DNA of 64,000 nt from Pirellulales bacterium (GCA_019745975.1 JAIESQ010000006.1:48433-112432); one strand, 5' to 3'; shown: positions 1,764-25,344, counted from the stretch's first letter. Notes: generated by a model from the letters alone, not told the origin. Numbers and translations are program-made.

Positions 1764-1785
1764 CAAGTCCCTTCAAAGGCTCGAA

Positions 1786-3888: not shown

Positions 3889-3987
3889 AAGATAAACGAG
3901 ACTCGCAGCAATCAACCGTCAGTCGGAGACAGCCGCTCTTGCATAGTTCTCTCAGGAAAAACTATAAGTGCGAACAGGGAGGTTCTC

Positions 3988-5643: not shown

Positions 5644-5786
5644 CTGAAACAAGCCGGTCATCGCCCTCGGGAGCTCGCATTGTTTGACTAGGCAGCGGCG
5701 ATGGCGTTCACGGTCGCATAAGGTCGTCGACGAGTCTGCCCTTGCGCTAGGTCCCTCTTTGAGGTAAGGTACCCAGCGCGAGGCGC

Positions 5787-6185
5787 ATGCGTTCAGTTTT
5801 TCAAAGTCTTTCATTGGTGGTGGTTCTTGCCCTGATTGGGGGCACTAAACACTGCATTGTCGAACGAGTCCTCGGGAGCGCGGTCCCCCCTCTGCATGCA
5901 TGTCCGGTAGACGGGGACCCTGACGGGGATGGTTCGACGTGCGAGTCGGTCCTGCCTCTTGCAACAAAAGCAACTGAGGCAGACCGTTGGTTGGGTAACG
6001 GATCCGAACAGCCCCCAATGATCGTGTCGACTCTCTTCGGCCCGGCCACTGTTCCCCGTCCGGTCACGCCCTCACCCTCGATCTTTGAGCAGCCTTCAGC
6101 TGTCCGGGCTCGTCGCGACTACTTGCTCGCTGCCCTTTCTGGGGCCCCAAATGCGCCCCCGTACATCGCGCGATTCGCAACCTAG
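5787..6185 (+). CDS. Hypothetical secreted protein
   Basis: Signal-peptide-like N-terminus (SLSLVVVLALIGG), Cys/His/Asp-rich segment, weak GAGG upstream. Sits between the two OMF genes. Confidence 0.3.
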   Translation: MRSVFQSLSLVVVLALIGGTKHCIVERVLGSAVPPLHACPVDGDPDGDGSTCESVLPLATKATEADRWLGNGSEQPPMIVSTLFGPATVPRPVTPSPSIFEQPSAVRARRDYLLAALSGAPNAPPYIARFAT

Positions 6186-6232
6186 ATCTCAAGCGTACCT
6201 ATTTTTTTACGACGACACACTTACGGAGTTCC

Positions 6233-7471
6233 ATGAAACTGCTTTGCGTCGTAGGACTCGGCTGTACTGTCCTACTGACTATCACGCTCTGCCCCGCACC
6301 CATACGTGCGCAGGGCAAAGCTCTCACTATCGACGATGCCGTCACTGCGGCGCTCACACACTCAGCACTCGTCCAGGAGATCGAAGCAACTTTTGTCCGC
6401 CAGAAGGCTGAGGCGTTTGAGACGCGAACGCTTGCGAACCCTGAGTTTGGAACTGAGTTGGCTGTCCCGTCATCCTTCGAACACTCGCGGGGAAGGAACG
6501 AAATAACTGTCAACCTTGTGCAACCGGTTAAGCTCACACATGGGACGGTGAGGAACAGGCTCGCTACGTTAATCGATATGGCTGGGAGCAGCGAAAGAGA
6601 GCGCGCGTTGCTTGAGCTGGCCGCGCGCGTTCGCATCGCCTTCGCGAGAACCTGGGTCCTCTCCGAGCGCCGAAACGCCTTTGCGACACTGATACCCCGT
6701 GCACAGGCCCTGGATCGGTTCGTCACTGCTGGGCTGAGAGTAGGGGCGTATGGCAAAGGGGAGGATGCACTGTTTCGGGCGGAGGTCTTCAAGGCTGAAG
6801 CTGAGCTAAAGGGGCTTACGGCGGAGAGTATCGCGGGGCTCTCGGAACTTTCTAGGGTCAGCGGATACTCTTTCGCGGACACTAGCCTCGCAGCACCAAC
6901 ACTGCCGGTTGTCCCGGCGGCCGACCAGCTCAAAGTCCGATTCGAGCGCTCCGAGACGAAGGTCCAAGAACGCAGCAAGATCCTTCTTGACTTAGCTAGG
7001 GCAGCGAAGGAAGTCGCGCGCGGCGATGCGTACCCTGAGTTCAGGCCCCGAATATTCTTTTCTCGCAGCAACGATGGGGTCGACCTGGTCGGTCTCGGAG
7101 TCTCGTTCGATCTCCCTTTTTGGAGTCGCAATACCGCGGACCGGATGAGGGCCGACGCCACCTTTGCAACGGCCCGAGCGAACCACCTTCTCATCGATAC
7201 TGAGAACTTCAAAATCTCGATTCTGGAAACGGCAAGGTCGTATTCGATACGCAGAGAGGAGATCCTCTTGTACCAACAGCACATCCTTCCCCTGGTTCGG
7301 CGGGCGCTCGAAGCGACGGAACTGCAAGTGAGGAGCGGTACTGGCAGCATCTTCCAACTTTGGCAGACTCTGCGCGAATACGCCGACGCCAATCAGCACT
7401 ATCTAGAACTATGGACGAAGGCGTTCACGGCCCACGTGGAGCTGTCGGTCCTCTTGGGTGAGGAGATCTGA
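6233..7471 (+). CDS. TolC/CzcC-family outer-membrane efflux factor (copy 2)
   Basis: Signal peptide ending ...APIRAQG, then LTIDDAVTAALTHSALVQEIEA, typical of CzcC. Immediately precedes the adaptor and pump genes. Confidence 0.8.
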   Translation: MKLLCVVGLGCTVLLTITLCPAPIRAQGKALTIDDAVTAALTHSALVQEIEATFVRQKAEAFETRTLANPEFGTELAVPSSFEHSRGRNEITVNLVQPVKLTHGTVRNRLATLIDMAGSSERERALLELAARVRIAFARTWVLSERRNAFATLIPRAQALDRFVTAGLRVGAYGKGEDALFRAEVFKAEAELKGLTAESIAGLSELSRVSGYSFADTSLAAPTLPVVPAADQLKVRFERSETKVQERSKILLDLARAAKEVARGDAYPEFRPRIFFSRSNDGVDLVGLGVSFDLPFWSRNTADRMRADATFATARANHLLIDTENFKISILETARSYSIRREEILLYQQHILPLVRRALEATELQVRSGTGSIFQLWQTLREYADANQHYLELWTKAFTAHVELSVLLGEEI

Positions 7472-7472
7472 C

Positions 7473-8396
7473 ATGAGGTGGCTATACGGATACTTGGTTA
7501 TTTGCCTGATGCTCGTGCCGACCTCCATAGTGGCTGGTGAAGAACACGGCGACGGGGACGACGAACGAGAGGGATCTCAATCGGGCGTGGAGATCAGTGA
7601 GGAAAACCTAGAACGGTTGGGGCTCCGTATGAATGAAGCTGGACAGGGGAACATCGTTCAAGGGATCGCGGCCACGGGCCGCATCGTTCCGGTCGACGGT
7701 CGACTCGCGAACGTCAGTCCGCGTTTTACAGGCGTCGTGACACAAGTCTCGGCGAATGTCGGCGACCACGTGAAACCTGGCAGCCCGCTCGCGGTGGTTC
7801 AGAGCAACCAGAACCTCCAGCCCTTTACCCTCACGCCAGCGATCGCCGGTATCGTCATAAAGCGGAGCGCGACTCTGGGGGAGGTCGTCACAGAAACAAG
7901 CGTCCTGTTTGTCGTCGCCGACCTGTCCGAACTGTGGGCCGAGCTTGCCGTCTACGGACAGGATGTCGCCAAAGTGCACATAGGCCAAAAGGTGATACTA
8001 TCGGTCGCTTCGTGCGCGAGCATCCCGGAAGGGACACTTGTGTTCCTATCTCCGGTCACTGATGAGAAGACCCAGTCTCGTATCGCCAGGGTTCACTTTC
8101 GGAGTCCAGACTCGTGCTTGTCGCCGGGGATATTTGTCGATGCCAAGATCATCACCGAGGCGACCCAGGTTCCCTTAGTCGTCCAAGCGGACGCATTGCA
8201 GCAGATCAATGGGAGACCGACCGTTTTCCTACAGGAGGGAGAGTACCTCCGCCCCCAGGCAATCGTTGTGGGGAGAGCCGATGCACAGACGGTAGAGGTG
8301 CTCCAGGGACTTACCGTGGGTACGCGCTACGTCACGGGGAACACCTTCATACTTAAAGCCGAGCTTGGGAAGGGCGAAGTAGCAGACGAGGACTAA
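7473..8396 (+). CDS. RND efflux periplasmic adaptor (CzcB/CusB-like MFP)
   Basis: ATG lies 2 nt after the previous stop. TM/signal N-terminus. Barrel-sandwich hybrid motifs (PRFTGVVTQVSANVGDHVKPGSPLAVV). Confidence 0.85.
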   Translation: MRWLYGYLVICLMLVPTSIVAGEEHGDGDDEREGSQSGVEISEENLERLGLRMNEAGQGNIVQGIAATGRIVPVDGRLANVSPRFTGVVTQVSANVGDHVKPGSPLAVVQSNQNLQPFTLTPAIAGIVIKRSATLGEVVTETSVLFVVADLSELWAELAVYGQDVAKVHIGQKVILSVASCASIPEGTLVFLSPVTDEKTQSRIARVHFRSPDSCLSPGIFVDAKIITEATQVPLVVQADALQQINGRPTVFLQEGEYLRPQAIVVGRADAQTVEVLQGLTVGTRYVTGNTFILKAELGKGEVADED

Positions 8397-8405
8397 GGGG
8401 GCGGT

Positions 8406-11400
8406 ATGTTGCGACGACTAATTCAGTTCTCGGTAGACCATCGTTATTTGGTCGTCCTTCTTACCGTCTTGGCCTCTTGCGTCGGCGCGCGTGATCTCTT
8501 ACGGATCCCGATCGACGCCGTGCCGGACATCACCAACAACCAAGTGCAGATAAATACTGTGTACAGCGCACTAGCGCCCGAAGAGATCGAGAAACAGATC
8601 ACATTCCCGGTTGAGACAGCGCTTGCAGGGATCCCGGGCCTCGACCATACGCGTTCCCTCTCCAGGAACGGGTTCTCTCAGGTCACGGCCGTGTTTGCAG
8701 ATGCTGTCGACATCTACTTCGCTCGACAGCAGGTCCAAGAACGATTGAGTGCAGCGAAGGAGGGCCTTCCACCGGGAGCCGAACCCCGAATGGGTCCTGT
8801 CTCGACCGGGCTCGGCGAAGTCTATATGTGGACCGTCGAGTACGAACATCCGCATGGCCACGGAGCAACTTCTGTTGACGGGACTCCTGGCTGGCAAATC
8901 GACGGCAGTTACCTGACGGCACGAGGCAAGAAGCTGAGGGGCGATGTCGAACTTGCGGCGTACCTTCGTGAAGTGCAGGACTGGCTCATTCGTCCCCAAC
9001 TGCGTTCGGTCGCCGGCGTTGCAGGGATCGATTCCATTGGAGGCTACGTCAAACATTACGTCGTTGAGGTTAGCCCATCCGCCCTGCTTGCCGTGGACCT
9101 CTCCGTGGCGGGTATCGTTGAGGCCTTGGAAGAGAGCAACCTCAGCACTGGTGCTGGCATCATTGAACACCGCGGCGAAGCATTCGTCGTTCGCGCCGCG
9201 AGTCTGCTCGTTGACGAAGAACAAATCGGCCAAGTTGTCGTCGCCGAGCGAGATGGTGTTCCGATCCGGCTTGGTCAGATCGCCAAGATCGCAATCGGCC
9301 GTGAGCAGCGGACTGGTTCCGCGAGTGGAAATGGCGAAGAAGTCGTTGTCGGGACTGCACTCATGCTGATCGGGGCTAACAGCCGCACAGTCGCCGACGC
9401 CGTGGACCAGAGGGTAGCTGAGATAAACCACACGCTGCCAAGCGACATTCGTGCCAGGCCTGTGCTCAATCGAATGAGGTTGGTTGACGCGACCATTGCC
9501 ACCGTCAAGAGGAACCTCGTCGAGGGCGCCATTCTGGTAACAGCCGTACTGTTCTTGCTGCTCGGTAACATCCGCGCGGCACTCGTTACAGCAACCGCAA
9601 TTCCACTTAGCATGCTGCTTACTGCTATCGGGATGGCACACACCAAGACGTCGGGAAACCTGATGAGCCTTGGGGCAATCGACTTCGGGCTAATCGTCGA
9701 TGGCGCGGTTATCATCGTCGAGAACAGTCTCCGGCGACTGGCTGAGCGTCAACACCAGCTTTCGCGTCGGCTCTCACTTGAGGAGCGGCTGCGCGTCGTC
9801 AGCGACGCTACGAAAGAGATGATTCAGCCATCGGTCTTTGGGCAGGCGATCATCATCACAGTCTATATCCCGATCCTTTCTCTGACTGGGACTGAGGGGA
9901 AGATGTTCCAACCCATGGCGCTGACCGTGATCTTCGCCTTAGTCGCTGCGTTTGTGCTGTCCCTGACATTTGTCCCTGCCATGGCGGCCATTGCCTTCAG
10001 CCGCGAAGTCAGGGAACACGACGTGCGCGTGGTCTCGGCCGCAAAGGGTCTCTATTGCCCACTGCTCGACCTCGCCCTACAAGCCCGTCACGTGGTAATT
10101 GCGGGGAGTGTCGTGTTGTTCGGGGCGTCACTCTGGCTCTTCACTGCACTGGGGCAGGAGTTCGTGCCATCGCTGGATGAAAAAGACCTACTAGTTAGCG
10201 CAATGAGGATTCCCGGTACCGGCATCGCTCAATCAACAGAGATGCAGCTCGAAGTAGAGCGCACGGTGTCTCAGATGCCCGAGGTGAAGTTCGTCTTCTC
10301 AAAGACGGGGACCGCAGAGATCGCTTCGGATCCGATGCCTCCCAACGTATCCGATACCTTCGTAATCCTTAAGCCCACGCACGAGTGGCCCAATCCGCAC
10401 GAGCCGAAGGCACGACTGGTTGAGCGCATGATGAAAGACCTAGCCCCGGTCCTAGGCAATAATTATGAATTCACACAGCCTATTCAAATGCGTTTCAACG
10501 ACCTGATCTCCGGTGTAAGGAGTGACGTGGCAGTAATGGTGTTCGGCGAAGACTTCGATGTGCTCTTGCCGGTTGCGGATCAAGTCGCGTCGATCTTGCG
10601 TGAGACGCCCGGTGGTTCTGACGTCAAGGTAGAACAGGTCTCCGGTCTGCCCTTCATAAGTGTCAATGTCAACCTCCTTCAGGCCGGCAAGCTTGGCCTC
10701 AGGCCTGCCGAGATCCATGCGCTGGTTGCCGCCGCTGTCCAGGGGCAGGAGGCAGGTTTCGTACTCGAAGGAGACCGGAGGTTTGGGATCCTTGTAAGGT
10801 TCCCGGAACAATTTCGTGCTGACCCTGAGTCGCTTCAACACTTGCCGATCCCTATCCCAGAATTAAAGGAAGGCATGCAGTCCGTGTTCGATGCGGGCGT
10901 GAAAGCCTATGACGCTAGCGCTTGGACGATCCCGCTCAGAGAGATTGCCAACATCGCCCTTAACGACGGCCCGAACCAAATCAGCCGACAGAACGGGAAG
11001 CGACGGATCGTGGTACAAGCGAACGTGCGTAACCGGGATCTCGGGTCTTTCGTCGCAGAGGCACAGAAGACGGTTGCTCAGCGCATAAGGCAGCCCCCTG
11101 GAGTATGGATGGAGTGGGGTGGCCAGTTCGAGAACCTCTTGAGAGCTAAAGGACGCTTGGCGGTTGTAGTCCCAGTTTGTCTGTTCCTGATCTTCGTCCT
11201 GCTCTTCTCGACATTCGATTCGGTGCGAGACGCCCTCCTTGTCTTCACTGCCGTCCCACTTGCGCTCCCCGGCGGCGTGATCGCTCTTTGGTTACGCGGG
11301 ATGCCATTCTCGATCTCAGCTGCAGTCGGGTTCATCGCTTTGTCAGGGATCGCGGTACTGAACGGACTCGTGCTCATTAGCTACATCAACAAGCTCATTG

Positions 11401-11636
11401 ACGAAAAACCTTTGCGCGAGGCCGTCACAGAGGGTGCGATAACGAGGCTCCGCCCCGTACTGATGACAGCTCTTGTGGCTTCGTTGGGATTCGTCCCGAT
11501 GGCTCTAGCGACTGGGACTGGCGCGGAAGTTCAAAGGCCGCTAGCGACTGTCGTCATCGGTGGGTTAGTCACAGCAACCGCGCTGACACTCTTCGTACTC
11601 CCTGCGCTCTGCCTGGTCGTCCGCCGCAAGGGTTAA
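8406..11636 (+). CDS. Heavy-metal efflux RND pump (CzcA/CusA family)
   Basis: 1076 aa with 12-TM RND architecture. HME signature AIDFGLIVDGAVIIVEN. Operon context with the adaptor and OMF genes. Confidence 0.95.
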   Translation: MLRRLIQFSVDHRYLVVLLTVLASCVGARDLLRIPIDAVPDITNNQVQINTVYSALAPEEIEKQITFPVETALAGIPGLDHTRSLSRNGFSQVTAVFADAVDIYFARQQVQERLSAAKEGLPPGAEPRMGPVSTGLGEVYMWTVEYEHPHGHGATSVDGTPGWQIDGSYLTARGKKLRGDVELAAYLREVQDWLIRPQLRSVAGVAGIDSIGGYVKHYVVEVSPSALLAVDLSVAGIVEALEESNLSTGAGIIEHRGEAFVVRAASLLVDEEQIGQVVVAERDGVPIRLGQIAKIAIGREQRTGSASGNGEEVVVGTALMLIGANSRTVADAVDQRVAEINHTLPSDIRARPVLNRMRLVDATIATVKRNLVEGAILVTAVLFLLLGNIRAALVTATAIPLSMLLTAIGMAHTKTSGNLMSLGAIDFGLIVDGAVIIVENSLRRLAERQHQLSRRLSLEERLRVVSDATKEMIQPSVFGQAIIITVYIPILSLTGTEGKMFQPMALTVIFALVAAFVLSLTFVPAMAAIAFSREVREHDVRVVSAAKGLYCPLLDLALQARHVVIAGSVVLFGASLWLFTALGQEFVPSLDEKDLLVSAMRIPGTGIAQSTEMQLEVERTVSQMPEVKFVFSKTGTAEIASDPMPPNVSDTFVILKPTHEWPNPHEPKARLVERMMKDLAPVLGNNYEFTQPIQMRFNDLISGVRSDVAVMVFGEDFDVLLPVADQVASILRETPGGSDVKVEQVSGLPFISVNVNLLQAGKLGLRPAEIHALVAAAVQGQEAGFVLEGDRRFGILVRFPEQFRADPESLQHLPIPIPELKEGMQSVFDAGVKAYDASAWTIPLREIANIALNDGPNQISRQNGKRRIVVQANVRNRDLGSFVAEAQKTVAQRIRQPPGVWMEWGGQFENLLRAKGRLAVVVPVCLFLIFVLLFSTFDSVRDALLVFTAVPLALPGGVIALWLRGMPFSISAAVGFIALSGIAVLNGLVLISYINKLIDEKPLREAVTEGAITRLRPVLMTALVASLGFVPMALATGTGAEVQRPLATVVIGGLVTATALTLFVLPALCLVVRRKG

Positions 11637-11717
11637 CAACAGACCTGTGGGAGTCCGAACCGGAGCGTTCTTCTCTTGGGACGGATTCGCCGGGGAGCGA
11701 TGCGACGTACTTTACGG

Positions 11718-12239
11718 CTATGCATCGATGAACACGTAGACCCCGAAGTCCGAGGATCGGACGCTGGAGTGACCGTCAAGGAAGATGTCTCGGCTGAATG
11801 CCTCGTAGTCGATGTAGAAGCGGAGATGCTCCGGCAGCTCGTGGGCATGTAGCTCATCGAATAAGTCTTGGGCATATGCCAACTCGGAGTCCCAGCGCCC
11901 GCGGTAGGCATCTAGGAACGACTCTTCTGTCGCACTGTCGTTGCCGACGTGCGCCGCGTAGGCGGCAAAGGGCTCTCCGTACTCATCAACCAGCAAAGCT
12001 AGCCTCGACACCTCGGAGAGCGGTTCGTACTCGTCGATGCGGATTTCGCCGAAGCCCTCGTAGTCGTGGATGGCCCATTCTTGCGCGATGGATTCGGGAG
12101 ACTGCTTGAGGAGTTCTTGCACTTCCTTGTGGAGTGAGTCCGCGTCCTGGGCTGCATGGATCCATTGTCCGTGGAGGGTCCCGGCGTTGTATGCCGCGAG
12201 GCAGGCGACGTAGATCATTGGCTTCAGTTTCTGATTCAT
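11718..12239 (-). CDS. ardA: Antirestriction protein ArdA
   Basis: N-terminus IYVACLAAYNAGTLHGQWIHA, then EWAIHDYEGFG, and a strongly acidic composition, all typical of the ArdA DNA-mimic family. Confidence 0.8.
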   Translation of the reverse strand: MNQKLKPMIYVACLAAYNAGTLHGQWIHAAQDADSLHKEVQELLKQSPESIAQEWAIHDYEGFGEIRIDEYEPLSEVSRLALLVDEYGEPFAAYAAHVGNDSATEESFLDAYRGRWDSELAYAQDLFDELHAHELPEHLRFYIDYEAFSRDIFLDGHSSVRSSDFGVYVFIDA

Positions 12240-13030: not shown

Positions 13031-14005
13031 TCAGACGAGGATCCGCTCGATCTCGTCCAGCGTGATCTCGTCACCGGTGCGATCGTACAGCTTGGTGGTC
13101 CTGGGCGACTCGTGGGCGGCGATCGCCTGGGCATGTTCGATTGTGCCGCCGTTTTCGAGATAGGCTGTTATCCCCGTCGCTCTGAAGCTGTGGCAGCAGA
13201 TGCGCTCCGGGATGGCTGCCTGACGAGCTCGCCGCTTCACCATCCGTAGTGCGTCGTTCCTCGTCATCCCGCGCGCGGTGGTCCGGCCATGGCGGTCGAT
13301 CGTGCGGAAGAGGGGAGACTCGTTGTCGCCCGCGATGCGCGCCGCCAGGAGGTAGCCATCCAAGTACGCCTGGGCGTTGTGGTGTGCAGGGACTACGTGC
13401 TCTTTGCCACCTTTCTCGCGGAGCCGAAACCACGAGCGCTTCCCTTCCTGAAAGTAGTCCTCGACCTGCATCGACACGGCGGCGGATACGCGAGCGAAGC
13501 TATACACCATAAGACCAATCAGCGCGCGGTCGCGGAGACCGATGACCGACTCAACGTCAATCGAATCAAGAAGCTGGCGTGCCTCTCCTGCGGTGAGGAC
13601 GGGCGTCTTGCCACGCTTCACGATGTGCTTCGGACCACGGACGGAACTTGCGGGGTTGGTCTCGATGATGTGGCCGACGACTAGCCAGTCAAAGAGCATG
13701 CGGATAGCGGCCAGGTGTTGCTTCACGGTCGGGGCCGCATAGGCGGTCAAGAGATCCTCGATGTAGCCGGCCACAACGATCGGCTGTATCTCGCATAGTT
13801 GCCTCACACCTCGCGACTCGGACCAGTCGAGGAAGCTTGCGACGGCCCGTGTGTACGCCTCGCGCGTGTTCGCGTTGCGGATTTGTGCAGCGAAGAACTC
13901 GAGGAACTTCCGAGCTGCCTTCTCGCCACCGGCCCGGACCAGCGCGGGAACGACGGGCGCGCTAGCGGCGCCCGCTTGTCGTTTTCGAGCAAGCGACTTC
14001 TCCAT
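13031..14005 (-). CDS. Tyrosine recombinase / phage-type integrase
   Basis: C-terminal catalytic region HSFRATGITAYLENGG...AAHESPRTTKLYDR (R..HxxR..Y) and an N-terminal SAM-like domain. Start taken at MEKSLARK, with GGAGG upstream. Confidence 0.9.
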   Translation of the reverse strand: MEKSLARKRQAGAASAPVVPALVRAGGEKAARKFLEFFAAQIRNANTREAYTRAVASFLDWSESRGVRQLCEIQPIVVAGYIEDLLTAYAAPTVKQHLAAIRMLFDWLVVGHIIETNPASSVRGPKHIVKRGKTPVLTAGEARQLLDSIDVESVIGLRDRALIGLMVYSFARVSAAVSMQVEDYFQEGKRSWFRLREKGGKEHVVPAHHNAQAYLDGYLLAARIAGDNESPLFRTIDRHGRTTARGMTRNDALRMVKRRARQAAIPERICCHSFRATGITAYLENGGTIEHAQAIAAHESPRTTKLYDRTGDEITLDEIERILV

Positions 14006-14218
14006 CAACCTCCATTTCCGAAAACTTGGCCATGCGCACCATGCGATCACCGTGACACGGCCCTTGAAGATCTGTCAATCCGGCACATTACGTTCAGGAT
14101 GCCGCCGCACAACTATTCCGGCAGGTCACAGACGATATTCCGCGCACCGTCGCCATACTTGCCTGCATCCAAGTAGGGGCCGCTCAAATATCCGCGCGGC
14201 GTGCAAACGCCGACGCGT

Positions 14219-14971
14219 ATGAGTACGAACTGGAGGTCACCTGAAGAACTTGTCCAAGAGGGCTTCGACCGTTCGTCGGTAGTAATGGTGAATGAGGCGC
14301 ACGACGGTTGGGCTCGGTGCATCCGCACCCGAATTGTGGGACTTAACATTCTTGATGTTGCGCATTCCTACGGTGCGAGGTACTTGGCCATGGAAGCACT
14401 TACGCCAGAGGTCGCCGGCGCTGCAAACGCAGGCAAATGTTTGCCGAACACGACTGGTGGCTACGTGAACCAAGCGGATCTTAGATCTCTGATCGCGGAG
14501 GCGCTACGACTTGGATTCACGCTCATCGCGTACGATCCCGACTTCTGGACGTGGCGCGAACCATCATGTGCCTTCGAGTGCGCGAAGCAACGAGATAGGA
14601 TGCAGGCATCAAACCTTGCATCGGCCTGGCGGCAGGACGCAAAAATGCTTGTGTGGGCAGGGAACTTGCATATAGCTAAGGCTCCCCTGAAAACGCCAAA
14701 CGGGCCTTACCCGCAAATGGCTTACTGGTTCCGGAACCTGACGGAAATCGAACCGTTCTGCATCGATCAGACGGTGACGGTCGATTGGGCTCACGGCAAC
14801 GACCGCGGGTCTCAGCATGTCGCTCGGTTTCGTACCGAGCTTCACGGTTACGGAGGCACGGCGGGTTTCTTACGCGAGGAAGGTCCCGATCCATTTCAAC
14901 AAGAGATATACGCCGATGCCTTTCTGCTGTCACTCCACAATGCAATGACAGTTACCGCACCCGTCGCCTGA
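14219..14971 (+). CDS. Tiki/ChaN/erythromycin-esterase superfamily protein (putative hydrolase)
   Basis: VVMVNEAHDG...YLAMEAL and QRDRMQASNL...KMLVWAGNLHIAK match the GE.H / E / RD..MA.N / G..H signature of that superfamily. The 3' end overlaps the convergent ATP-grasp gene by 42 nt. Confidence 0.6.
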   Translation: MSTNWRSPEELVQEGFDRSSVVMVNEAHDGWARCIRTRIVGLNILDVAHSYGARYLAMEALTPEVAGAANAGKCLPNTTGGYVNQADLRSLIAEALRLGFTLIAYDPDFWTWREPSCAFECAKQRDRMQASNLASAWRQDAKMLVWAGNLHIAKAPLKTPNGPYPQMAYWFRNLTEIEPFCIDQTVTVDWAHGNDRGSQHVARFRTELHGYGGTAGFLREEGPDPFQQEIYADAFLLSLHNAMTVTAPVA

Positions 14972-16051
14972 AATCGCAGTCGGTGCCAGTCCGTTCGTAG
15001 CCAGGCGTGCCAACTCGTCAGCAATGGCCTCACTGATTTGCATGCCAGTCAATTGCTCGATCCAGCCCCATTGCCCGGCGGCATTAACTTCTAGAAACAC
15101 ATAGCGATCGTCTTCGGTGACGATCATGTCGATGCAACCAAACCTAAGGCCCAAGCGGCGCATTAGTGCGCGCAGACTCCGTTCAATCTGTGGCGGAAGC
15201 GTAAATGGCTGATGGTGCGGCGTTTCGGTTGGCACGTTGACGAACCGTCTGAAATCGACGCGTGTGCTGGGCCTCTCTTGAGAGAGGATTCTGCATGCGA
15301 AAATCGCGTCGCCGACGATTGTAATCCGGACATCGCATCGCTTTTTGATGAACTGCTGGAACATCACCGGCGCGATCTGGATGTGGTCCAATAAGGGTAG
15401 CCGATCCCTTGTTAGGAGTTGGGAAAAGAGAAAAAGAGACGGACGAGTGTCGTCTTGTGGGATCGCGGGCTGCCGAACAAGTCGTGGGCCGTAGGCCCGC
15501 ACCAGCTCATCTGCGTTACTGTTGTGTAACCAGGCTCCTCCCGAGACAGTCTTGAAAAGCACTTGCTCGTCGCATTCGTCAAAGAATTCCCGAGCATGCG
15601 TTGGATCATTGGTCACCAACGTTCTGGGAACGGCGAGGTGCAAGCTGCTTGCAACCGTGAGCTGATAAAGCTTATCGGTAGCACGATCCTCAGCCGCAGG
15701 GTCGTTCATCCACGGCGAGTGAAGGGTGCTAATCAAGCCGGTCAGGAGGGCACGACACTCAGTGTCGGCAAAGTGGCTTTCTGTCTCTGTCAGTCCCGCG
15801 GCAGAAACCGGCGGTACTGGCCTTCGGTACCACACCGCCTTGATGTATCGCGTATCAACTTCTCCGACAGCAGTCTCCAAGCTGGCCCAGACTTCCTTGC
15901 CGGCGATGTTCCACTGGATTGCTGTCGCTAGGGGAAACGCCTCGGTGTTGAGGCGGAACCACCGCAGACCTCGCCGTTCCAAGTGTGGGATTAGCTGGTT
16001 GACGTTTTGCTCGGCGAGGTTCGTAACGATCAGAACGGTCGGCGGTTTCAT
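14930..16051 (-). CDS. ATP-grasp ribosomal-peptide maturase (MvdC/MvdD-like)
   Basis: N-terminus MKPPTVLIVTNLAEQNVNQLIPHLERRGLRWFRLNTE. C-terminus GCIDMIVTEDDRYVFLEVNAAGQWGWIEQLTGMQISEAIADEL. Both are typical of graspetide ligases. Confidence 0.85.
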   Translation of the reverse strand: MKPPTVLIVTNLAEQNVNQLIPHLERRGLRWFRLNTEAFPLATAIQWNIAGKEVWASLETAVGEVDTRYIKAVWYRRPVPPVSAAGLTETESHFADTECRALLTGLISTLHSPWMNDPAAEDRATDKLYQLTVASSLHLAVPRTLVTNDPTHAREFFDECDEQVLFKTVSGGAWLHNSNADELVRAYGPRLVRQPAIPQDDTRPSLFLFSQLLTRDRLPLLDHIQIAPVMFQQFIKKRCDVRITIVGDAIFACRILSQERPSTRVDFRRFVNVPTETPHHQPFTLPPQIERSLRALMRRLGLRFGCIDMIVTEDDRYVFLEVNAAGQWGWIEQLTGMQISEAIADELARLATNGLAPTAISGDGCGNCHCIVE

Positions 16052-16362
16052 CGCAGGGAGGCTGCAGAATCGTAGCCATCACCTTTGGTGCTGCCGCCAA
16101 AGGTCGTGCATGGCGAGTCGCCAGCTCCAGTCACCTTCAAACCATCAACGAGTTCGGAAAAAACGCAGCCTGCCTGGCTCAATACGTCAACGGCCTTCTG
16201 TTCTGCGAACAGAAGAACGAACGGAGTGCTTGTTTTGGCGGTACCGGGCAAGGGTGCCGCGACCATCAGATTCTGAGCGCCACGTTGACTTGCGTTTCCC
16301 TTTCGGCGTGGAGCTCCGGGTTTTGCAGCATTCGACTTCCGGTTCAATTTCTTCTTCGACAT
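16048..16362 (-). CDS. Candidate graspetide precursor peptide (104 aa)
   Basis: GGAGG 8 nt upstream of the ATG. Its stop overlaps the ATP-grasp start (ATGA). Leader-like PFVLLFAEQ resembles the microviridin PFFARFL motif. The C-terminus is Thr/Ser/Lys/Asp-rich: CTTFGGSTKGDGYDSAASLR. Confidence 0.6.
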   Translation of the reverse strand: MSKKKLNRKSNAAKPGAPRRKGNASQRGAQNLMVAAPLPGTAKTSTPFVLLFAEQKAVDVLSQAGCVFSELVDGLKVTGAGDSPCTTFGGSTKGDGYDSAASLR

Positions 16363-16830
16363 TCTCCTGACCTCCTTCCCGGTGGTACGGCGCTCGGTGC
16401 ATTCGAAGGTAATCCGGCAGACTGTGCCAACAGCGTATCAACCCCCTCCGGCCAAAATCAAGCCGCGGCGGCGGTCATCAGGCATTCGGAAGGAAGGCAT
16501 CGCTTTCAAAAGCATGCGGGAATTGGTCGATGCTCCTCGAAGGCGGCACCTGCTTGGCGGCCGGCATAGGGGCACACTGGTCGCTCGATGACAATTCGGG
16601 AACTTACGCCCCCACGCTGCCTCATAACGTCCTTTATGCGGCGGCCCTAAGAACCCGTTATCACTTGGTGGAAACAGTTGCCGGCCTCGGTGTTTGAGCG
16701 GACGATTTTGCGAGCGGGCATGCGGCGACGAAGTTTGAAGACGAGCCGAGTAAACAGGAGAGCCAGTCGGCTGGCTCGGCCTAGCGAACTGCGTGACTAA
16801 CCTTTCGTGATTCAAGCTTTCTTTTGATCG

Positions 16831-17913
16831 ATGGATGTGGCATGCTCGCCGAGTGCTGATTGTTTTTTGAGCGAGCCTCTTATGACATCTTTTTCAAACG
16901 AACCCGTACCTCACGCTTCATGGAGCGAAGCACGCGAGAATGCTGCTCCTACGCAACGAACCTTGCGCCTAACAACGCTTATTGAAGGGTTGAAGAATCC
17001 TGACGTGTTGGCGTGCCTTCAATCGACGAGAGCACTTGTAGACATGGGCGAGAATGCAGTAGCGGCTCTGCTCGGCGTACTCACGGAGCCAAATCCGCTG
17101 GTGCGCTTTGTAGCGGCGTCCGCTATTGCAGAGATCGGGGCCGACAAAGCGCCCTTTCTTGCTGAAGCACTTAAAGTCCTAAACAGGGATGTGCGCCTAG
17201 AGACGGCATGGGGTCTTGGACTGACGGGGGCTATTGGTGCCGATGTAGTGCTTACTCTCGCTGATGCACTTAAAGACAAAAGCGTGAGTGTGCGCCTTCT
17301 GGCAGTGTGGGCACTTGGACAGAGAGGAGTGGATGCACGTCTTGCTGTTCCCGCTTTGGCCCAAGCACTCAAAGATTCTGACGAGGACGTGCGATATGAG
17401 GCAGCGGCGGCTCTTGCAGAGATCGGAGCAGATGCGCGGGATGCAGTACCGGCCCTGGTTGAAGCCTTCAAAGATTTAAGTAAGGAAGTGCGCTCCCATG
17501 TTGTGTGGGCTCTAAGGAACATCGGGCCTGATGCAGTCTCGACACTTGCCGAAGCTCTCAAGGATCCAAACGAGGAAGTGCGCCGTCACGCAGCATGGGT
17601 TCTTGTAAACATTGGGGGAGATGCTGTGCCGGCTGTTCTTGACGCGCTCAAACACCCGAGCCAACTTCTGCGCTTCCAGGCTGTGTGGGCTCTAAAAAAC
17701 ATCGGACCGGATGCCGTGCCCACACTTGCCGGAGCCCTCAAGGATGCAAGCGCGGAAGTGCGCTTCCTAGCCGCATCGGCGCTCGGAGAGATCGGCTCGG
17801 AAGCGTGGAATGCAGTACCGGCTTTGGTGGAAGCCCTTAAAGACCCCAACAATGAGGTGCGCTCCCAGGCGGCGTGGGCACTTGGAAGGATTGACCCGCG
17901 TGTGCTTATTTGA
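16831..17913 (+). CDS. HEAT-repeat (PBS-lyase type) protein, about 9 repeats
   Basis: Repeating ~31-aa unit D..VR..AAWALG.IG.DAVPAL.EALKD. Start is ambiguous (ATG 16831 or 16882). Confidence 0.85.
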   Translation: MDVACSPSADCFLSEPLMTSFSNEPVPHASWSEARENAAPTQRTLRLTTLIEGLKNPDVLACLQSTRALVDMGENAVAALLGVLTEPNPLVRFVAASAIAEIGADKAPFLAEALKVLNRDVRLETAWGLGLTGAIGADVVLTLADALKDKSVSVRLLAVWALGQRGVDARLAVPALAQALKDSDEDVRYEAAAALAEIGADARDAVPALVEAFKDLSKEVRSHVVWALRNIGPDAVSTLAEALKDPNEEVRRHAAWVLVNIGGDAVPAVLDALKHPSQLLRFQAVWALKNIGPDAVPTLAGALKDASAEVRFLAASALGEIGSEAWNAVPALVEALKDPNNEVRSQAAWALGRIDPRVLI

Positions 17914-17934
17914 AAGGTCTGGAAGGTGCTTGCG

Positions 17935-18210
17935 ATGGTCAATTTCGAAGAATGCGAAGACCTGACGGACGCAGAAATCCAGACCTTGCTTGAAGCGATC
18001 CCTCGCGACCTTTTTTTGAGAGCGATCGCAGGGTCGAACGAAGCGCTCAAGCAGCGGTTCTTTAAGAACCTTTCCGCTAAAGCGGTGCAGTGCATTGAGG
18101 GCGACCTCAAGCAGCTCAGGGCTGCTGCGGATGACGTTGAGAATGCACGACGAGAGGTCGTAGGTATCCTCCAGGGTCTGATTGACAAGGGCACGGTCGC
18201 CGCGCCGTAA
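17935..18210 (+). CDS. Stand-alone FliG C-terminal / MgtE_N-like domain protein
   Basis: LTDAEIQTLLEAIPRDLFLRAIAGSNEALKQRFFKNLSAKAVQCIEGDL...DVENARREVVGILQGL matches the FliG_C consensus layout. GGAAGG 8 nt upstream of the ATG. Confidence 0.6.
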   Translation: MVNFEECEDLTDAEIQTLLEAIPRDLFLRAIAGSNEALKQRFFKNLSAKAVQCIEGDLKQLRAAADDVENARREVVGILQGLIDKGTVAAP

Positions 18211-18389
18211 CGATGTGCGCGACGCGACCGGTCAACGGACTTGGAATCCGGAAGCCGAGTCAGGCCGGTTTGAGGAACTCTACGAAGGGAACAAACGCGA
18301 TATCTACCGGCTTCAGGCGCTCGAAGGACCGGCTATAATGCCAGTTCCATTTTTAGAGCCTGAGCGAGGCATCTCGGAGTGACCGTCTC

Positions 18390-19028
18390 ATGCAGCCTTT
18401 CTCCGTGCATCGTTCCAACCCGAACCGCAGCGCTGAGATGCACAAGACTTTGCTCTTCGTTCAGCGTCGGCTGTGCCGCACCATGAAGAATCAGAAGGTC
18501 GTGGGCCGCCGCGACTGGAACGGCCGGAAAGTCTCGCAGGCGGACTTCGATGCCGGCGACCGCAGCGCACACGTCTGTCCGTTCGTGCAGGATGCGCTAG
18601 ATCGCGACTTCCTTTGGCTGGAGGAGTCAAACAAGAGCACGCAAAGCGACGTGGAAGCTCTCCTGCAAAACCAGGTCGATCTCTTTATTCATACTCCCCC
18701 AGTCCACGACCCCGTGGCAACGCAACTACCTGCGAAAACGCCGGACCTCTGGAAGGCGTTCATCACCATTTTCCCTTTCCTGCCGCTGGACAGCAATCTC
18801 ATCCGGTCAATTCATCTGACGCTCAAGCCGCAGTTCGTCGCCAAGGGCTTGATGATCGGGGAGTTCTTTCCCGGTTTTACGGGTCAGAAAGGCATCCATA
18901 ACGACGTTGACTTTTTCCCGGGCATTGCCCCCTACCCCCTGTTCGCGATCAGATACATGGTCGAGTCGGACCGGCTCTTCAATCGCGACCCCCTGTACGA
19001 CGCCCACTATCGCCGCTATTTCCCCTAG
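18390..19028 (+). CDS. Hypothetical protein
   Basis: 212-aa ORF with protein-like composition. Start uncertain (ATGs at 18390, 18435, 18483). No family recognised. Confidence 0.5.
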   Translation: MQPFSVHRSNPNRSAEMHKTLLFVQRRLCRTMKNQKVVGRRDWNGRKVSQADFDAGDRSAHVCPFVQDALDRDFLWLEESNKSTQSDVEALLQNQVDLFIHTPPVHDPVATQLPAKTPDLWKAFITIFPFLPLDSNLIRSIHLTLKPQFVAKGLMIGEFFPGFTGQKGIHNDVDFFPGIAPYPLFAIRYMVESDRLFNRDPLYDAHYRRYFP

Positions 19029-21201: not shown

Positions 21202-21465
21202 TCAGAACTGTTCGTTCCGATCGTTGCCGTTCCCGTTCCCGTCCTGAACGTGCTGGAAGATCCACGTGTGAGCTTGGTCGGCGACCTTCGCCACGAGGGC
21301 TAAGTCGTCGCGACCGAAGCTCTGGGAAGTCTTCCAGTCGTCGCCATCCTTGTAGAGCCGCTGAAGGGTGACGTTGTGCCTAGTGCGTCCGTCGACTTCG
21401 TTGGCCCAGATGGCGGCTTTCACGTGCCCGAAACGGACTTCATGGACTGGTCGATTCGCTGACAT
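21202..21465 (-). CDS. Small conserved protein, paralog 2 of 3 (PC4/YdbC-like suspected)
   Basis: VKAAIWANEVDGRTRHNVTLQRLYKDGDDWKTSQSFGRDDLALVAKVADQAHTWI aligns with paralog 3 (VSAAIWANKTKQGDTRHCVTFSRVYY...STSFGRSDLVSLVKLAQDAHAYL). Confidence 0.65.
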   Translation of the reverse strand: MSANRPVHEVRFGHVKAAIWANEVDGRTRHNVTLQRLYKDGDDWKTSQSFGRDDLALVAKVADQAHTWIFQHVQDGNGNGNDRNEQF

Positions 21466-21492
21466 GATAGAACCTCACTTGAACAAAGAGCT

Positions 21493-21787: not shown

Positions 21788-22879
21788 TTATGCCGCGACT
21801 GCTGCTAGCGCCAAGAGCTTTGACGCTTTCTCGTCCGCGTCCGTGCGGTCGCCGGCGTTGGAAGTCTCACGTGCAAGCCGCGTCAGGGCGTCCACCAGCG
21901 CGAAGATGGTGAACCTCCCCTGCTGCGCGGCTATCTCCAAAGCCTGCTTTGCAACGCTTCGAGCGATGCCGTTCTTCGCCAGGACCTTCATCACTTCCTC
22001 AGCGTCGTCGCCGAGCTTTGTCTCCATCGCCTTTTGGATCACCGTCGCAAAGCCATCTCTTCGCTTGTCGCGTTCGACGACTAGGCTCTCGATGATCCGA
22101 CGGATCTCGCGGAGGGACTCGTGGACGTTCGCCGTATGCTTTCGAGTGAACTCGAAGACATCCACGGCGTCCCAGACGATATGGTTCTGGCACACGGCCT
22201 GGAACCAAAAGGTCTGGATACCCAGCGAGCGCCGTCCCACTTCCGAGTTCCAGATGAAGAACCCGGGGGCGAACGCCTCGCCGTCGATCTCAGTCCAGCC
22301 GGCCGGGTCGATGAGAAAACAGAACAGGTCCTGTTCTCCCGAATACAGCCCGGTCGCTCCATTGAACCCCCTCTGCGGGGGCTGGAAGTCGACGGCAAAC
22401 TCCTGGAGCATGGCGATGAGGTCCGCGTCAAAGAGCCGCGTGTAGCTTGTCCCGTGGATCGAACGGATGTTCTCCCCTTCGGTAAAAAGCTGGAGCGGCT
22501 TAGTGCCTCGCGGAAGCGTCTCCGCGAAGACTTGCGACGCGGTCTCTGGAGAGAGTCGGTTGACCGTCTCCTTCCCTACCCCGGCCAGTTTGCAGAGCTG
22601 GCTGAAGCTCCAGTCGTTCATCAGGAAGGCGCCGTCGTTCCCTGCTGATAGCAGGAGGCCATTTCCGTCTACCGGATCGATGGCGAGCTGCGCCGGCAGC
22701 TGCCAACGGTCCTGGGAGTGCTCCTGTTTCGCCCTACAGTGGACAGACAACGCAGCCAACGACTCGAACCTCTCGTCGTCGGTCCTGCGGAACAGTTCAC
22801 TGTGGGCACGTGTCAGGTTCTGCACGATCTTTGTCCTTTCTGTTTGGAACCCATGTTTGAAACCGACCATCGGTCTCAT
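21788..22879 (-). CDS. DUF932-like protein (plasmid/ICE/phage associated)
   Basis: Core FFIWNSEVGRRSLGIQTFWFQAVCQNHIVW matches the NS.dGs.s...vC.N signature of DUF932. GAGG upstream of the ATG. Confidence 0.8.
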   Translation of the reverse strand: MRPMVGFKHGFQTERTKIVQNLTRAHSELFRRTDDERFESLAALSVHCRAKQEHSQDRWQLPAQLAIDPVDGNGLLLSAGNDGAFLMNDWSFSQLCKLAGVGKETVNRLSPETASQVFAETLPRGTKPLQLFTEGENIRSIHGTSYTRLFDADLIAMLQEFAVDFQPPQRGFNGATGLYSGEQDLFCFLIDPAGWTEIDGEAFAPGFFIWNSEVGRRSLGIQTFWFQAVCQNHIVWDAVDVFEFTRKHTANVHESLREIRRIIESLVVERDKRRDGFATVIQKAMETKLGDDAEEVMKVLAKNGIARSVAKQALEIAAQQGRFTIFALVDALTRLARETSNAGDRTDADEKASKLLALAAVAA

Positions 22880-23571: not shown

Positions 23572-23715
23572 GTGGCCGGTTCAGCCACGAGTAAGTTAGT
23601 CGTGCGACCGGACCACGTAGCGTCGGGGGCAAGTCAAGGAGGAACGTACCGAAGGGCGGCAATTCCTTGACTGGTCAGCCTCGATGCGCAGTGAGGAAAC
23701 GGAAGACCTTATGCA
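23572..23715 (-). promoter_or_regulatory. Conserved ~145-nt leader element, family 2, copy 1
   Basis: Shares three blocks with 25345-25492: the GTGGCC..GGCCAC-type hairpin, CCACGAGTWARTTAGTCG, and the hairpin GTCAAGGA-(23 nt)-TCCTTGAC. Confidence 0.55.
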
Positions 23716-25324: not shown

Positions 25325-25344
25325 GTGGTTTCTCCATTTCAATG

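Follow-up and report, generated by a model that had tools for sequence, protein, structure and literature searches.

Graspetides (omega-ester/amide RiPPs) are predicted to number more than 21 000 and have been divided into 43 groups (PMC13097080), and a general graspetide leader motif has been given as Phhx(1,2)h (PMC8939145). Within group 13, judged from Table S4 of PMC13097080, a PIMT-type methyltransferase (TIGR04188) occurs in essentially all clusters. Other graspetide loci are on record as having Tiki/TraB or Ere-like genes (PMC8939145; group 15 in PMC13097080). Independently of the present finding, Makarova et al. described in 2022 a graspetide locus of Gammaproteobacteria that includes an erythromycin-esterase-like gene (PMC8939145); the function of TIKI/Ere hydrolases at graspetide loci was noted that year to be unclear. 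As for the hydrolases themselves, RRSP, PMT, HopBA1, Bcr135 and ChaN have been grouped as the TIKI superfamily, with the Ere family, to which the esterase EreC belongs, being discussed alongside TIKI proteins (PMC6254334).

Here we analyzed a locus within a 64 000-nucleotide stretch of Pirellulales DNA (the window), which a preliminary description had presented as a non-canonical graspetide locus with a convergent hydrolase gene. We consider it likely that the locus is a minimal graspetide (omega-ester RiPP) module carried as cargo by an integrative mobile element. One more minimal graspetide cluster would not in itself be surprising, but three features make this locus a useful test case: a rare precursor family with an invariant and distinctive core (C-TT-FGG...GDGYDSA) and an unusual basic extension; a ligase that is repeatedly paired with a TIKI/Ere-type hydrolase, the latter catalytically intact as far as its motif indicates; and the location of the module on a mobile element beside antirestriction genes.

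Organization of the locus

The three ORFs of the preliminary description were all judged to be real, and the strings quoted there (VLIVTN, RWFRLNTE, FLEVNAAGQWGWIEQLTGMQISEAIADEL, PFVLLFAEQ and the core string listed in Table 1) were all found in the translations. The precursor stop and the ligase start overlap as ATGA, as had been claimed, and this holds for the window as well as for both related loci, L001 and L150 (three of the three known loci). The GGAGG Shine-Dalgarno was likewise found as described; its counterpart is AGGAG at L001 and a weak match alone at L150. The hydrolase ORF, ending at 14971 (+), may start at either 14219 (ATG) or 14201 (GTG), and its 3' end overlaps that of the ligase gene by 42 nt. 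Homologues span 96% of the 250-aa form starting at 14219, whereas the public gene call for this protein (P0124) comprises only 193 aa, without the invariant NEAH motif. A search of the locus for sigma-70-like promoters found none, terminator-like matches did not exceed the shuffled expectation and included no convincing terminator, and the locus contains neither a transporter nor a recognised leader peptidase.

Table 1. Features of the graspetide locus and of the surrounding element, with positions counted from the first nucleotide of the window.
Feature	Position	Strand	Basis and remarks
ArdA antirestriction protein	11718..12239	(-)	PF07275, 142 bits; 80% identical to L150 ArdA
Tyrosine recombinase/integrase	13031..14050	(-)	PF00589, 64.5 bits; XerD-like, below cut-off
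TIKI/ChaN/Ere-superfamily hydrolase, 250 aa	14219..14971	(+)	Convergent; predicted cytoplasmic; AF2, Foldseek, motif
ATP-grasp ligase, 373 aa	14930..16051	(-)	Graspetide-type macrocyclase; profile and PDB matches
Precursor ORF, 104 aa	16048..16362	(-)	ORF reading
Precursor parts			Residues 1-32, basic extension; ~34-80, conserved leader; ~82-104, predicted core
Predicted core CTTFGGSTKGDGYDSAASLR, residues 85-104	16051..16110	(-)	Alignment of three precursors
Leader recognition motif PFVLLFAEQ, residues 47-55	16198..16224	(-)	Invariant in three close precursors
GGAGG Shine-Dalgarno	16371..16375	(-)	8 nt 5' of precursor ATG; sequence reading
DUF932-like protein	21788..22879	(-)	PF06067 weak (21.8 bits, cut-off 23); phrog_1362, E 6e-16

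The ATP-grasp ligase

Profile comparisons identify the 373-aa protein as a graspetide-type ATP-grasp ligase. Its residues 5-118 matched the MvdD pre-ATP-grasp domain (PF21068) at 50.1 bits with a cut-off of 27, and its top NCBIfam matches were all RiPP maturases at 205-250 bits, namely TIGR04187 (249.8 bits), MvdC (TIGR04185, 214.5 bits) and MvdD (TIGR04184, 204.5 bits), scores that nevertheless lie below the curated cut-off of every named maturase subfamily (350 bits for SAV_5884-type TIGR04187, 425 for MvdC and 475 for MvdD). The protein aligned over its full length with MdnB/MdnC, save for a 26-residue insertion at residues 170-195. In an alignment of the clade the residues K167, R242, D266, R268, E321 and N323 were invariant, and these we take, by analogy with ATP-grasp enzymes in general, to be the ATP/Mg-binding and catalytic residues.

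It could be argued that the protein is instead a RimK/GshB-type ligase of primary metabolism or protein glutamylation, with the upstream ORF being spurious or unrelated, since weak RimK-domain matches were obtained (28 bits to PF08443 and 54.5 bits to TIGR00768, with 20 bits to GshB) and homologues carry the JGI auto-annotation 'glutathione synthase/RimK-type ligase-like'. That reading is effectively refuted by the RiPP-maturase models, which score four to five times higher than RimK, by a PDB search in which MdnB/MdnC (E 1e-42) outdid RimK (E 3e-3) by 40 orders of magnitude, by the presence of the MvdD-specific N-terminal domain, and by an upstream ORF that is conserved, coupled and under selection. 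The protein thus groups with the MvdC/D-type macrocyclases, as the preliminary description had proposed.

The precursor peptide

The pattern of substitutions identifies the precursor ORF as a true coding gene under purifying selection: within the three-locus family pS was 0.66-0.88, with synonymous sites saturated, as compared to a pN of 0.17-0.23, and the ORF is therefore more than a chance occurrence. The three family members share 74-80% identity across the C-terminal 71 aa and are each coupled by ATGA to ligases that are 56-69% identical. The family is rare, with just three sequence clusters among 5.8 billion proteins. When 1.84 billion representatives were searched with a profile, five more short precursors having the leader in common were recovered, and the one of these that was looked up (P0251) is encoded directly upstream of a PF21068 ligase. 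The upstream ORF is hence conserved beside homologous ligases, and its PFVLLFAE leader recurs across the wider clade.

The N-terminus had been described as very basic, and indeed the first 32 residues hold 10 K/R and no D/E. This composition is kept in four precursors, and the long ORF, with an M-(S/A)-K-K start, is open at all loci examined. An alternative start at M33 was rejected, as the ATG/TTG/GTG codons are out of register across the three loci and are not preceded by a Shine-Dalgarno. A 32-residue basic extension in a 104-aa precursor is atypical for graspetides.

The proposal that PFVLLFAEQ is the leader recognition motif gained support from its invariance in the three loci, from its fit to Phhx(1,2)h in a small precursor adjacent to the ligase, and from its recurrence as PFV(L/M)(L/M)(W/F)AE in the precursors located by clade ligases of Armatimonadota and Gemmataceae, as well as in metagenomic relatives. 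ORFs with PFV(L/M)(L/M)WAE...VFS(E/P) were found upstream of clade ligases in Capsulimonadaceae, Chthonomonas, Armatimonadales and Gemmataceae genomes.

In the predicted core, the residues C85, T87, F88, G89, G90, G94, D95, G96, Y97, D98, S99 and A100 are invariant among the three precursors, with T or S at position 86, such that T87 and S99 provide conserved potential donors and D95 and D98 conserved potential acceptors. Candidate ester donors are T86/T87, S91/T92 and S99, with D95, D98 and, just upstream of the core, D82 as candidate acceptors. The same TT-x6-GD spacing recurs in the sister clade, where cores follow the pattern E-TT-x6-8-D-TT. Because the core Lys is not conserved, K93 being replaced by A in both relatives, an omega-amide is unlikely and esters are expected. 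The absence of the microviridin core TxKxPSDx(E/D)(E/D), also noted before, was borne out by the alignment, in which the core is a different one. The leader and core strings gave no match in the text-searchable supplement parts of PMC13097080 and PMC8939145, where the group logos are images.

The convergent hydrolase

The AF2 model of the hydrolase (pLDDT 95, pTM 0.93) gave Foldseek matches to RRSP, HopBA1, ChaN, PMT-C1, EreC and Bcr135, with E-values of 3e-5 to 5e-3 and probabilities of 0.87-1.0, and on this model we confidently predict an alpha+beta fold of the TIKI type, built around a core of parallel beta-sheet. Among 119 homologues, E26-x-H28, E59 and R125 were invariant and H151 was kept in at least 90%. 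The RRSP counterparts are E3900-x-H3902, E3930, R4001 and H4030 (PMC6254334), a correspondence that we infer from order and spacing rather than from structural superposition, and the 2His/2Glu+Arg catalytic motif thereby appears to be intact. Model, structural matches and motif together uphold the earlier Tiki/ChaN/EreA assignment. With the Pfam Erythro_esterase model (PF05139) the protein scored 20.5 bits, under the threshold of 26.4, with residues 123-156 alone being matched, which places it outside that family as defined by Pfam. No PHROG match was found for the hydrolase.

Whether this enzyme belongs functionally to the graspetide genes is a matter on which the evidence is divided, and we give about an even chance to its being a dedicated partner of the module. 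The competing explanation, which we place a little short of even, is that the graspetide module consists of two genes only and that the element carries the hydrolase as a separate cargo gene that merely happens to adjoin the ligase, perhaps a stand-alone esterase or a resistance-type enzyme. The gene is convergent with that of the ligase in all three loci having the trio, and the two are therefore not co-transcribed. The wider hydrolase family, with more than 226 members and relatives encoded on 435 metagenomic stretches, was sampled at 80 loci, of which 27 were at least 5 kb long; none of the 80 contained a ligase and no consistent neighbour emerged, a penicillin-acylase-like gene being present in 8 of them. 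Conversely, the 64 other ligase loci lacked the hydrolase, except for a distant homologue in Rhodanobacter, and one member of the hydrolase subclade found at the trio loci (P0127, locus L158) has no ligase beside it and is adjoined by IS1 fragments. All of this would suit unrelated cargo. Against it, the trio is intact in L001, which has no other gene in common with the window or L150, the trio-associated hydrolases form a subclade of their own with a branching that mirrors that of the ligases, and in Rhodanobacter the hydrolase homologue (hhalign probability 97.6%) comes after a graspetide ligase that is distantly related, an independent pairing to which the published Tiki/TraB or Ere-like genes at other graspetide loci can be added. 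At P0126 (JGI 3300056388), considered together with this subclade, the hydrolase is followed by a truncated convergent ORF.

A module carried by a mobile element

The locus had been said to sit on a low-GC island that would suggest horizontal acquisition. With a GC content of 0.562 it is indeed the lowest 2.1-kb stretch of the window (mean 0.620, sd 0.034). It does not, however, form a sharp island, because the left flank (1-11700) is already at 0.592 and the surrounding element at 0.582. The GC argument is weak, and gene content gives the better supported case for horizontal carriage, which itself stands: that the module is cargo on a mobile element with ArdA, integrase and DUF932 genes (Table 1) is well supported. 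The homologous element L150 has a backbone 80-89% identical to that of the window, with indels, and includes a 345-aa protein 89% identical to the DUF932-like protein, while the trio is more divergent at 59-69%; the integrase is missing from the corresponding position in L150. L001 has only the three module genes in common with the window and L150, which speaks for the integrity of a three-gene module. Neither a tRNA gene nor flanking direct repeats (att) were found that would mark the boundaries of the element.

A HEAT-repeat protein (16831..17913) was rejected as a further partner, being absent from both L150 and L001; it has a generic, repeat-level likeness to a Gemmataceae HEAT protein, and its matches to the 200-aa proteins of the Chthonomonas type were non-significant (E 0.03 or weaker). 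A known defence system was also rejected, with PADLOC matching none of the precursor, the ligase and the hydrolase.

These surroundings bear on the destination of the product, which might, instead of being a secreted natural product, be an intracellular crosslinked peptide at the service of the element, such as a protease inhibitor with a part in defence or anti-defence during transfer, its basic tail acting in retention or targeting and the hydrolase as an off-switch. Several observations fit such a role, including the lack of an exporter and of a leader peptidase at the locus, the ArdA and DUF932 neighbours together with the PIN, AAA+/S8-peptidase pair and HsdM genes of L150, a related precursor-ligase pair (L154) that abuts a RadC/JAB-like gene, the preserved composition of the basic extension and the protease inhibitor activity of microviridins, the best-known graspetides (PMC13039773). 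The argument comes entirely from context, however, and the PADLOC result opposes it, as does the fact that many bona fide graspetide clusters likewise lack proteases and transporters; we rate it as quite improbable.

Proposed biosynthesis and role of the hydrolase

Returning to the minimal omega-ester module, we can go beyond the observed memberships, conservation, gene coupling and synteny to propose a chemistry, ring positions and a hydrolase role. Precursor and ligase would be translated together by way of the ATGA overlap, whereupon the leader (PFVLLFAEQ with the downstream VFSEL.DGL box) would be bound by the MvdD-type pre-ATP-grasp domain of the ligase. The ATP-grasp domain would then turn side-chain carboxylates of the core Asp residues into acyl-phosphates, and attack by Thr/Ser hydroxyls would give one to three side-chain macrolactones, each with a mass change of -18 Da. 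The likeliest ring would link T86 or T87 to D95, a second one probably involving D98 or D82 together with S/T91-92 or S99; a lactam would not be expected, the sole core Lys not being conserved.

The TIKI/Ere enzyme family includes peptide-processing proteases as well as macrolactone esterases. By analogy with TIKI and RRSP, which are peptidases, the hydrolase could be the leader peptidase; alternatively, by analogy with Ere enzymes, which open macrolactones, it may act as an esterase on the product macrolactone for immunity or turnover. The most far-reaching combination, in which an Ere-type hydrolase reopens the omega-ester macrolactones or represents a new class of leader peptidase, and the module with its basic-tailed precursor works inside the cell for the ArdA element, for example by making a protease inhibitor that is not secreted but used in defence or anti-defence conflicts, we regard as improbable. 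Were it true, the enzyme might in the first of these cases be the first Ere-family esterase to reopen RiPP omega-ester macrolactones, giving a reversible crosslink or immunity.

Comparison with known systems

Microviridins (MdnA with MdnB/MdnC or MvdC/MvdD; group 1) share with the present locus the pre-ATP-grasp leader-binding and ATP-grasp domains of the ligase, the P-hydrophobic leader motif and the position of the precursor directly upstream of the ligase, and microviridin ligases (5ig8 and 5ig9) were the best solved-structure matches, at full length. The locus nevertheless falls outside the microviridins. It has one ligase instead of two, with scores of 214.5 vs 425 and 204.5 vs 475 bits against the MvdC and MvdD cut-offs, the GNAT acetyltransferase is absent, the leader motif is PFVLLFAEQ instead of PFFARFL, the microviridin core is replaced by one in which no lactam is expected for want of a conserved Lys, and the ligase carries the 26-residue insertion that MdnB and MdnC lack. 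The SAV_5884-type maturases (graspimiditide-type, group 13) gave the best-scoring curated model, TIGR04187, yet the ligase stays under its cut-off, the PIMT-type methyltransferase is not in the locus, and the precursor had no NCBIfam match, thus none to the target model TIGR04186, so that the locus does not fit group 13 either.

Related loci with a PFVLLWAE leader occur in Armatimonadota and Gemmataceae (L005-L011, L018, L036, L066, L154 and L156), with ligases 38-45% identical to that of the window. They have the same bipartite leader, PFV(L/M)(L/M)(W/F)AE...VFS(E/P)..GL, and behind it a core that is rich in Thr and Asp and spaced as TT-x6-8-D. Their precursors are shorter (58-92 aa as compared to 104 aa) and mostly without the basic extension, the pattern of their cores is E-TT-x6-8-D-TT-(F/W) instead of C-TT-FGGxxx-GD-GY-DS, and they lack the TIKI-type hydrolase, some of them having a membrane-anchored protein of ~200 aa between precursor and ligase. 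The Rhodanobacter locus (L052) resembles the window in having a hydrolase homologue by a graspetide ligase, with the NE.H, LA.E, RE..QA, G.xH and IDQT motifs in common. It differs in that its ligase is only 29% identical, its hydrolase is a 416-aa protein with a signal peptide encoded co-directionally with the ligase, and a PCAT exporter is encoded there along with a SPASM-like protein.

With the TIKI superfamily (Tiki, RRSP, EreA-D/Bcr135, ChaN, HopBA1 and PMT-C1) the window hydrolase shares the predicted fold and a 2His/2Glu+Arg spacing close to that of RRSP, differing as a minimal 250-aa single domain with nothing appended, and most of its own family has no link to RiPP genes. The locus is, in conclusion, a conserved three-gene module that constitutes a rare member of the well-known graspetide class, and not a new type of system.

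Gene organization of the locus

All three ORFs claimed in a preliminary description of this DNA were found by reading the window (see table), with every peptide string quoted there recovered in them, the precursor stop overlapping the ligase start as ATGA and the GGAGG lying 8 nt 5' of the precursor ATG. The 3' ends of the ligase and hydrolase genes overlap mutually by 42 nt. Since homologues cover 96% of the 250-aa form of the hydrolase, its start at 14219 should be about right. At 193 aa, its public gene call (P0124) falls short of this form and lacks the invariant catalytic NEAH motif. A second gene shortened in public calls is the ligase of the metagenomic mobile element L150 (P0003), given 241 aa by JGI for an intact ATGA-coupled ORF of 355 aa.

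Features of the trio locus, its surroundings and related loci
Feature	Locus	Coordinates	Strand	Remark
Heavy-metal resistance block	Window	1468-11636	+	Left flank; P-type ATPase (TIGR01525, 603 bits), TolC-like outer-membrane protein, CzcA-type RND pump
Tyrosine recombinase	Window	13031..14050		In place of the PIN toxin-antitoxin pair of L150
Hydrolase ORF	Window	ATG 14219 or GTG 14201, to 14971	+	Convergent to ligase; ORF reading
Ligase ORF, 373 aa	Window	16051..14930	-	ORF reading
Precursor ORF, 104 aa	Window	16362..16048	-	ORF reading
Core G96-Y97-D98	Window	16066-16074	-
HEAT_2 repeat protein (360 aa), FliG_C-like 94-aa protein, DUF6875 protein	Window	16831-19028	+	Absent from L150
Intergenic repeat, ~88 nt	Window	23584-23671 and 25358-25446		1.77 kb apart
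Further pair of related regions	Window	21205-21474 and 25088-25369
Ligase P0003	L002/L150	10312-11379
Membrane-anchored protein, ~200 aa	L009	4378-4989
Membrane-anchored protein, ~200 aa	L010	910-1635
Membrane-anchored protein, ~200 aa	L066	4415-4990
Membrane-anchored protein, ~200 aa, two copies	L011	3361-3963 and 4355-4987
Graspetide operon	L052 (Rhodanobacter sp. OK091)	2585-9227		Order: PCAT exporter, graspetide ligase, ChaN/Ere-like protein, membrane protein, SPASM-like protein
RadC/JAB-like ORF	L154	2327-2737	-	HNHPSG motif; convergent, after precursor P0251 and its ligase

A graspetide-type ligase

Pfam recognized an MvdD pre-ATP-grasp domain in the ligase (50 bits, cut-off 27) and a RimK-type ATP-grasp domain in its C-terminal part. 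RiPP maturases headed the NCBIfam ranking (TIGR04187 249.8 bits, MvdC 214.5, MvdD 204.5, grasp-with-spasm 109), against 54.5 for RimK and 20 for glutathione synthase, all of these scores being exceeded by the curated subfamily cut-offs. Among solved structures MdnB and MdnC were the best matches (E 1e-42), followed by AMdnB, CdnC, 9bou and PsnB, with RimK at merely E 3e-3. The ligase aligns with MdnB/MdnC end to end except for a 26-residue insertion (residues 170-195), and K167, R242, D266, R268, E321 and N323 are invariant across 21 aligned clade ligases, the last two being the E-x-N of FLEVN. The maturase scores and MdnB/MdnC matches thus place the enzyme, as had been proposed, with the MvdC/D-type ligases and not with those of RimK, GshB or cyanophycin type. 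As judged from these comparisons the ligase is a graspetide-type macrocyclase, and one that falls outside the MvdC, MvdD and SAV_5884 subfamilies.

Conservation of the precursor

The closest relatives of the ligase, P0002 (56% identical) and the 355-aa form of P0003 (69% identical), are each directly preceded, in loci L001 and L002/L150, by an ORF of 103 or 104 aa with the same ATGA overlap. In the three-sequence alignment, precursor residues 34-104 are largely invariant (AAPLP..AK..TPFVLLFAEQK..DVL..A.CVF.EL.DGL...G.GD..C.TFGG...GDGYDSA..L), and the conserved 71 residues, searched against 5.8 billion protein clusters, retrieved these three proteins only (100, 80 and 74% identity). Over 72 conserved codons synonymous sites were saturated (pS 0.66-0.88) at a pN of 0.17-0.23, on which grounds we take the precursor ORF to be a true coding gene. 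Its N-terminal 32 residues are poorly kept in sequence but strongly basic in every member, with 10-13 K/R and 0-3 D/E. A start inside the ORF at residue 33 found no support.

A bipartite leader, PFV(L/M)(L/M)WAE followed after 9-13 residues by (V/I)FS(E/P), recurred in ORFs 5' of ligases about 40% identical, a clade seen in Capsulimonadaceae, Chthonomonas, Armatimonadales and Armatimonadota genomes and on one Gemmataceae metagenome contig; the C-termini of these ORFs differ from that of the window precursor and are Thr/Ser/Asp/Glu-rich. Conservation of the upstream ORF beside homologous ligases, on which the earlier reading depended, was accordingly found both as coupled genes and as a recurring leader. 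A profile of the three precursors, run against 1.84 billion representatives, retrieved five more small proteins with an LP......KPFVLL(F/W)AE(Q/P).AV(D/E)VLK..N.VFSEA..GL leader and E-TT-x6-8-(G/A)D-TT-(F/W) cores; three further matches were repeat proteins and were discarded as spurious. Among the five, P0251 likewise bears a basic N-terminal tail; it lies directly 5' of a PF21068 ligase. The window leader also conforms to the motif Phhx(1,2)h shared by graspetide leaders in general (PMC8939145).

In Chthonomonadales/Armatimonadota graspetide loci, a conserved membrane-anchored protein without Pfam match was seen between precursor and ligase (see table); it is a candidate for what Carter et al. 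2026 call a partner protein.

Core peptide and proposed ring chemistry

The window core, C-TT-FGGSTK-GD-GY-DS, retains the TT-x6-GD spacing of the clade, with Cys in place of the upstream Glu and Y-D-S in place of the downstream TT. An omega-amide, one option in the preliminary description, appears unlikely because the sole core Lys (K93) is replaced by Ala in both relatives. In microviridin-type ligases the leader binds the pre-ATP-grasp domain. By analogy, the precursor leader would dock on this domain, the ligase would phosphorylate Asp carboxylates of the core, and Thr/Ser hydroxyls would capture these, giving up to two or three lactones from the invariant donors T87, S/T86 and S99 and the acceptors D95, D98 and D82. 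Our best guess for the first ring would be T86/87 to D95, as the TT-x6-D spacing is clade-wide.

The invariant core also contains G-Y-D-S, resembling the E-Y-D-P at which RRSP, a TIKI-family protease, cuts Ras between Tyr and Asp (PMC6254334); this is probably a coincidence.

Fold of the hydrolase and its possible link to the ligase

The hydrolase gave only an Erythro_esterase match below the Pfam threshold (20.5 vs 26.4 bits, residues 123-156) and no match in a PDB sequence search. Its family, which has no Pfam assignment, numbers more than 226 proteins, each about 250 aa long. Its AF2 model, based on a 119-member alignment, was very confident (pLDDT 95, pTM 0.93) and matched in Foldseek RRSP (6a7h, 6a8j, 5w6l), HopBA1 (5t09), ChaN (2g5g), PMT C1 (2ebf), EreC (6xcq) and Bcr135 (2rad, 3b55); RRSP, PMT, HopBA1, Bcr135 and ChaN have been grouped as the TIKI superfamily (PMC6254334). 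N25, E26, H28, G41, E59, R125, W146, G148 and Q184 do not vary across the 119 sequences, and at least 90% of these retain H151. By order and spacing, rather than superposition, E26-x-H28, E59, R125 and H151 agree with the catalytic 2His/2Glu motif of RRSP (E3900, H3902, E3930 and H4030, plus R4001; PMC6254334). Model, matches and motif bear out the Tiki/ChaN-superfamily reading of this neighbour, which has no signal peptide and looks catalytically competent.

We put the chance of a functional link between hydrolase and ligase at about even. In each of the three close loci a full-length NEAH hydrolase gene converges on that of the ligase, the two overlapping by 14-42 nt or standing up to about 40 nt apart, and at E 1e-5 nothing beyond the trio is common to L001 and the window or L150. 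The three hydrolases form, with P0126 and P0127, a separate subclade in a neighbour-joining tree. A 416-aa homologue with signal peptide (hhalign probability 97.6%, E 2.7e-12) follows a 29%-identical graspetide ligase in Rhodanobacter, in an operon that includes a PCAT exporter (see table); this is probably the gammaproteobacterial graspetide locus for which Makarova et al. reported an erythromycin-esterase homologue, describing its function as 'unclear' (PMC8939145). Tiki/TraB genes have also been described in graspetide loci of candidate phyla radiation bacteria (PMC8939145), and PF05139 in 15 of 16 group 15 clusters (PMC13097080). What speaks against a link is, first, that hydrolase and ligase, being convergent, are not co-transcribed. 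Moreover, 80 metagenomic loci sampled for the wider hydrolase family (27 of them at least 5 kb) had neither a ligase nor a consistent neighbour gene, no other ligase-clade locus examined had the hydrolase, and the subclade hydrolase P0127, in locus L158, has IS1 fragments and a non-ligase gene as neighbours. If linked, the hydrolase would act either on the leader as a peptidase or on the lactones as an esterase, neither being favoured; an Ere-type esterase or peptidase dedicated to graspetides, acting intracellularly and serving the element, seems improbable.

Carriage by a mobile element

Window positions 11.7-23.3 kb are homologous to L150, with backbone identities of 80% (ArdA), 87% (142-aa protein) and 89% (DUF932-like protein), the trio being clearly more divergent (precursor 62%, ligase 69%, hydrolase 59%). 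Further along L150 are an AAA+/S8-peptidase pair and HsdM. A block of about 4.8 kb (16.4-21.2 kb), encoding the HEAT, FliG_C-like and DUF6875 proteins, is present in the window and absent from L150; as the HEAT protein gave weak PADLOC matches to HEAT-ARM_XIII and HEAT_CxxC_PD-DEXK, the block may be an insertion of defence-type cargo. Horizontal carriage of the trio, suggested earlier from a low-GC island, is well supported on account of the gene content of the element; the trio locus is indeed the GC minimum of the window (0.562), but the island argument itself is weak, the left flank being at 0.592 and the element at 0.582. Neither tRNA nor att repeats were found around the element.

Like the window with its resistance block, L150 has efflux-type genes: an outer-membrane efflux protein (PF02321 OEP) is found there with a redoxin and a TetR regulator, on the other side of the element, whereas the window block lies beside ArdA. 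The copies of the intergenic repeat share 75% identity, including an exact 19-mer, and terminate in CAAGGAGGAAC; they may reflect duplication of a promoter or 5' UTR preceding paralogous small genes. In L154, the RadC/JAB-like gene, of a type typical of mobile elements, hints that the PFVLL(F/W)AE clade as a whole is often carried by mobile DNA.

Comparison with known graspetide systems

The module was compared with the 43 published graspetide groups by its leader and core strings, which had no match in the supplements of PMC13097080 and PMC8939145 or in the part of the PMC13097080 main table that was covered. The interest of the module lies in its recurrent TIKI/Ere-hydrolase pairing, its long basic-tailed precursor and its carriage by an ArdA-type mobile element. 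On sequence grounds the module is predicted to work like a minimal graspetide cluster, displaying all testable defining features of the class; it qualifies neither as a microviridin nor as a SAV_5884/graspimiditide system, and we regard it as a new and rare graspetide cluster within a known class.
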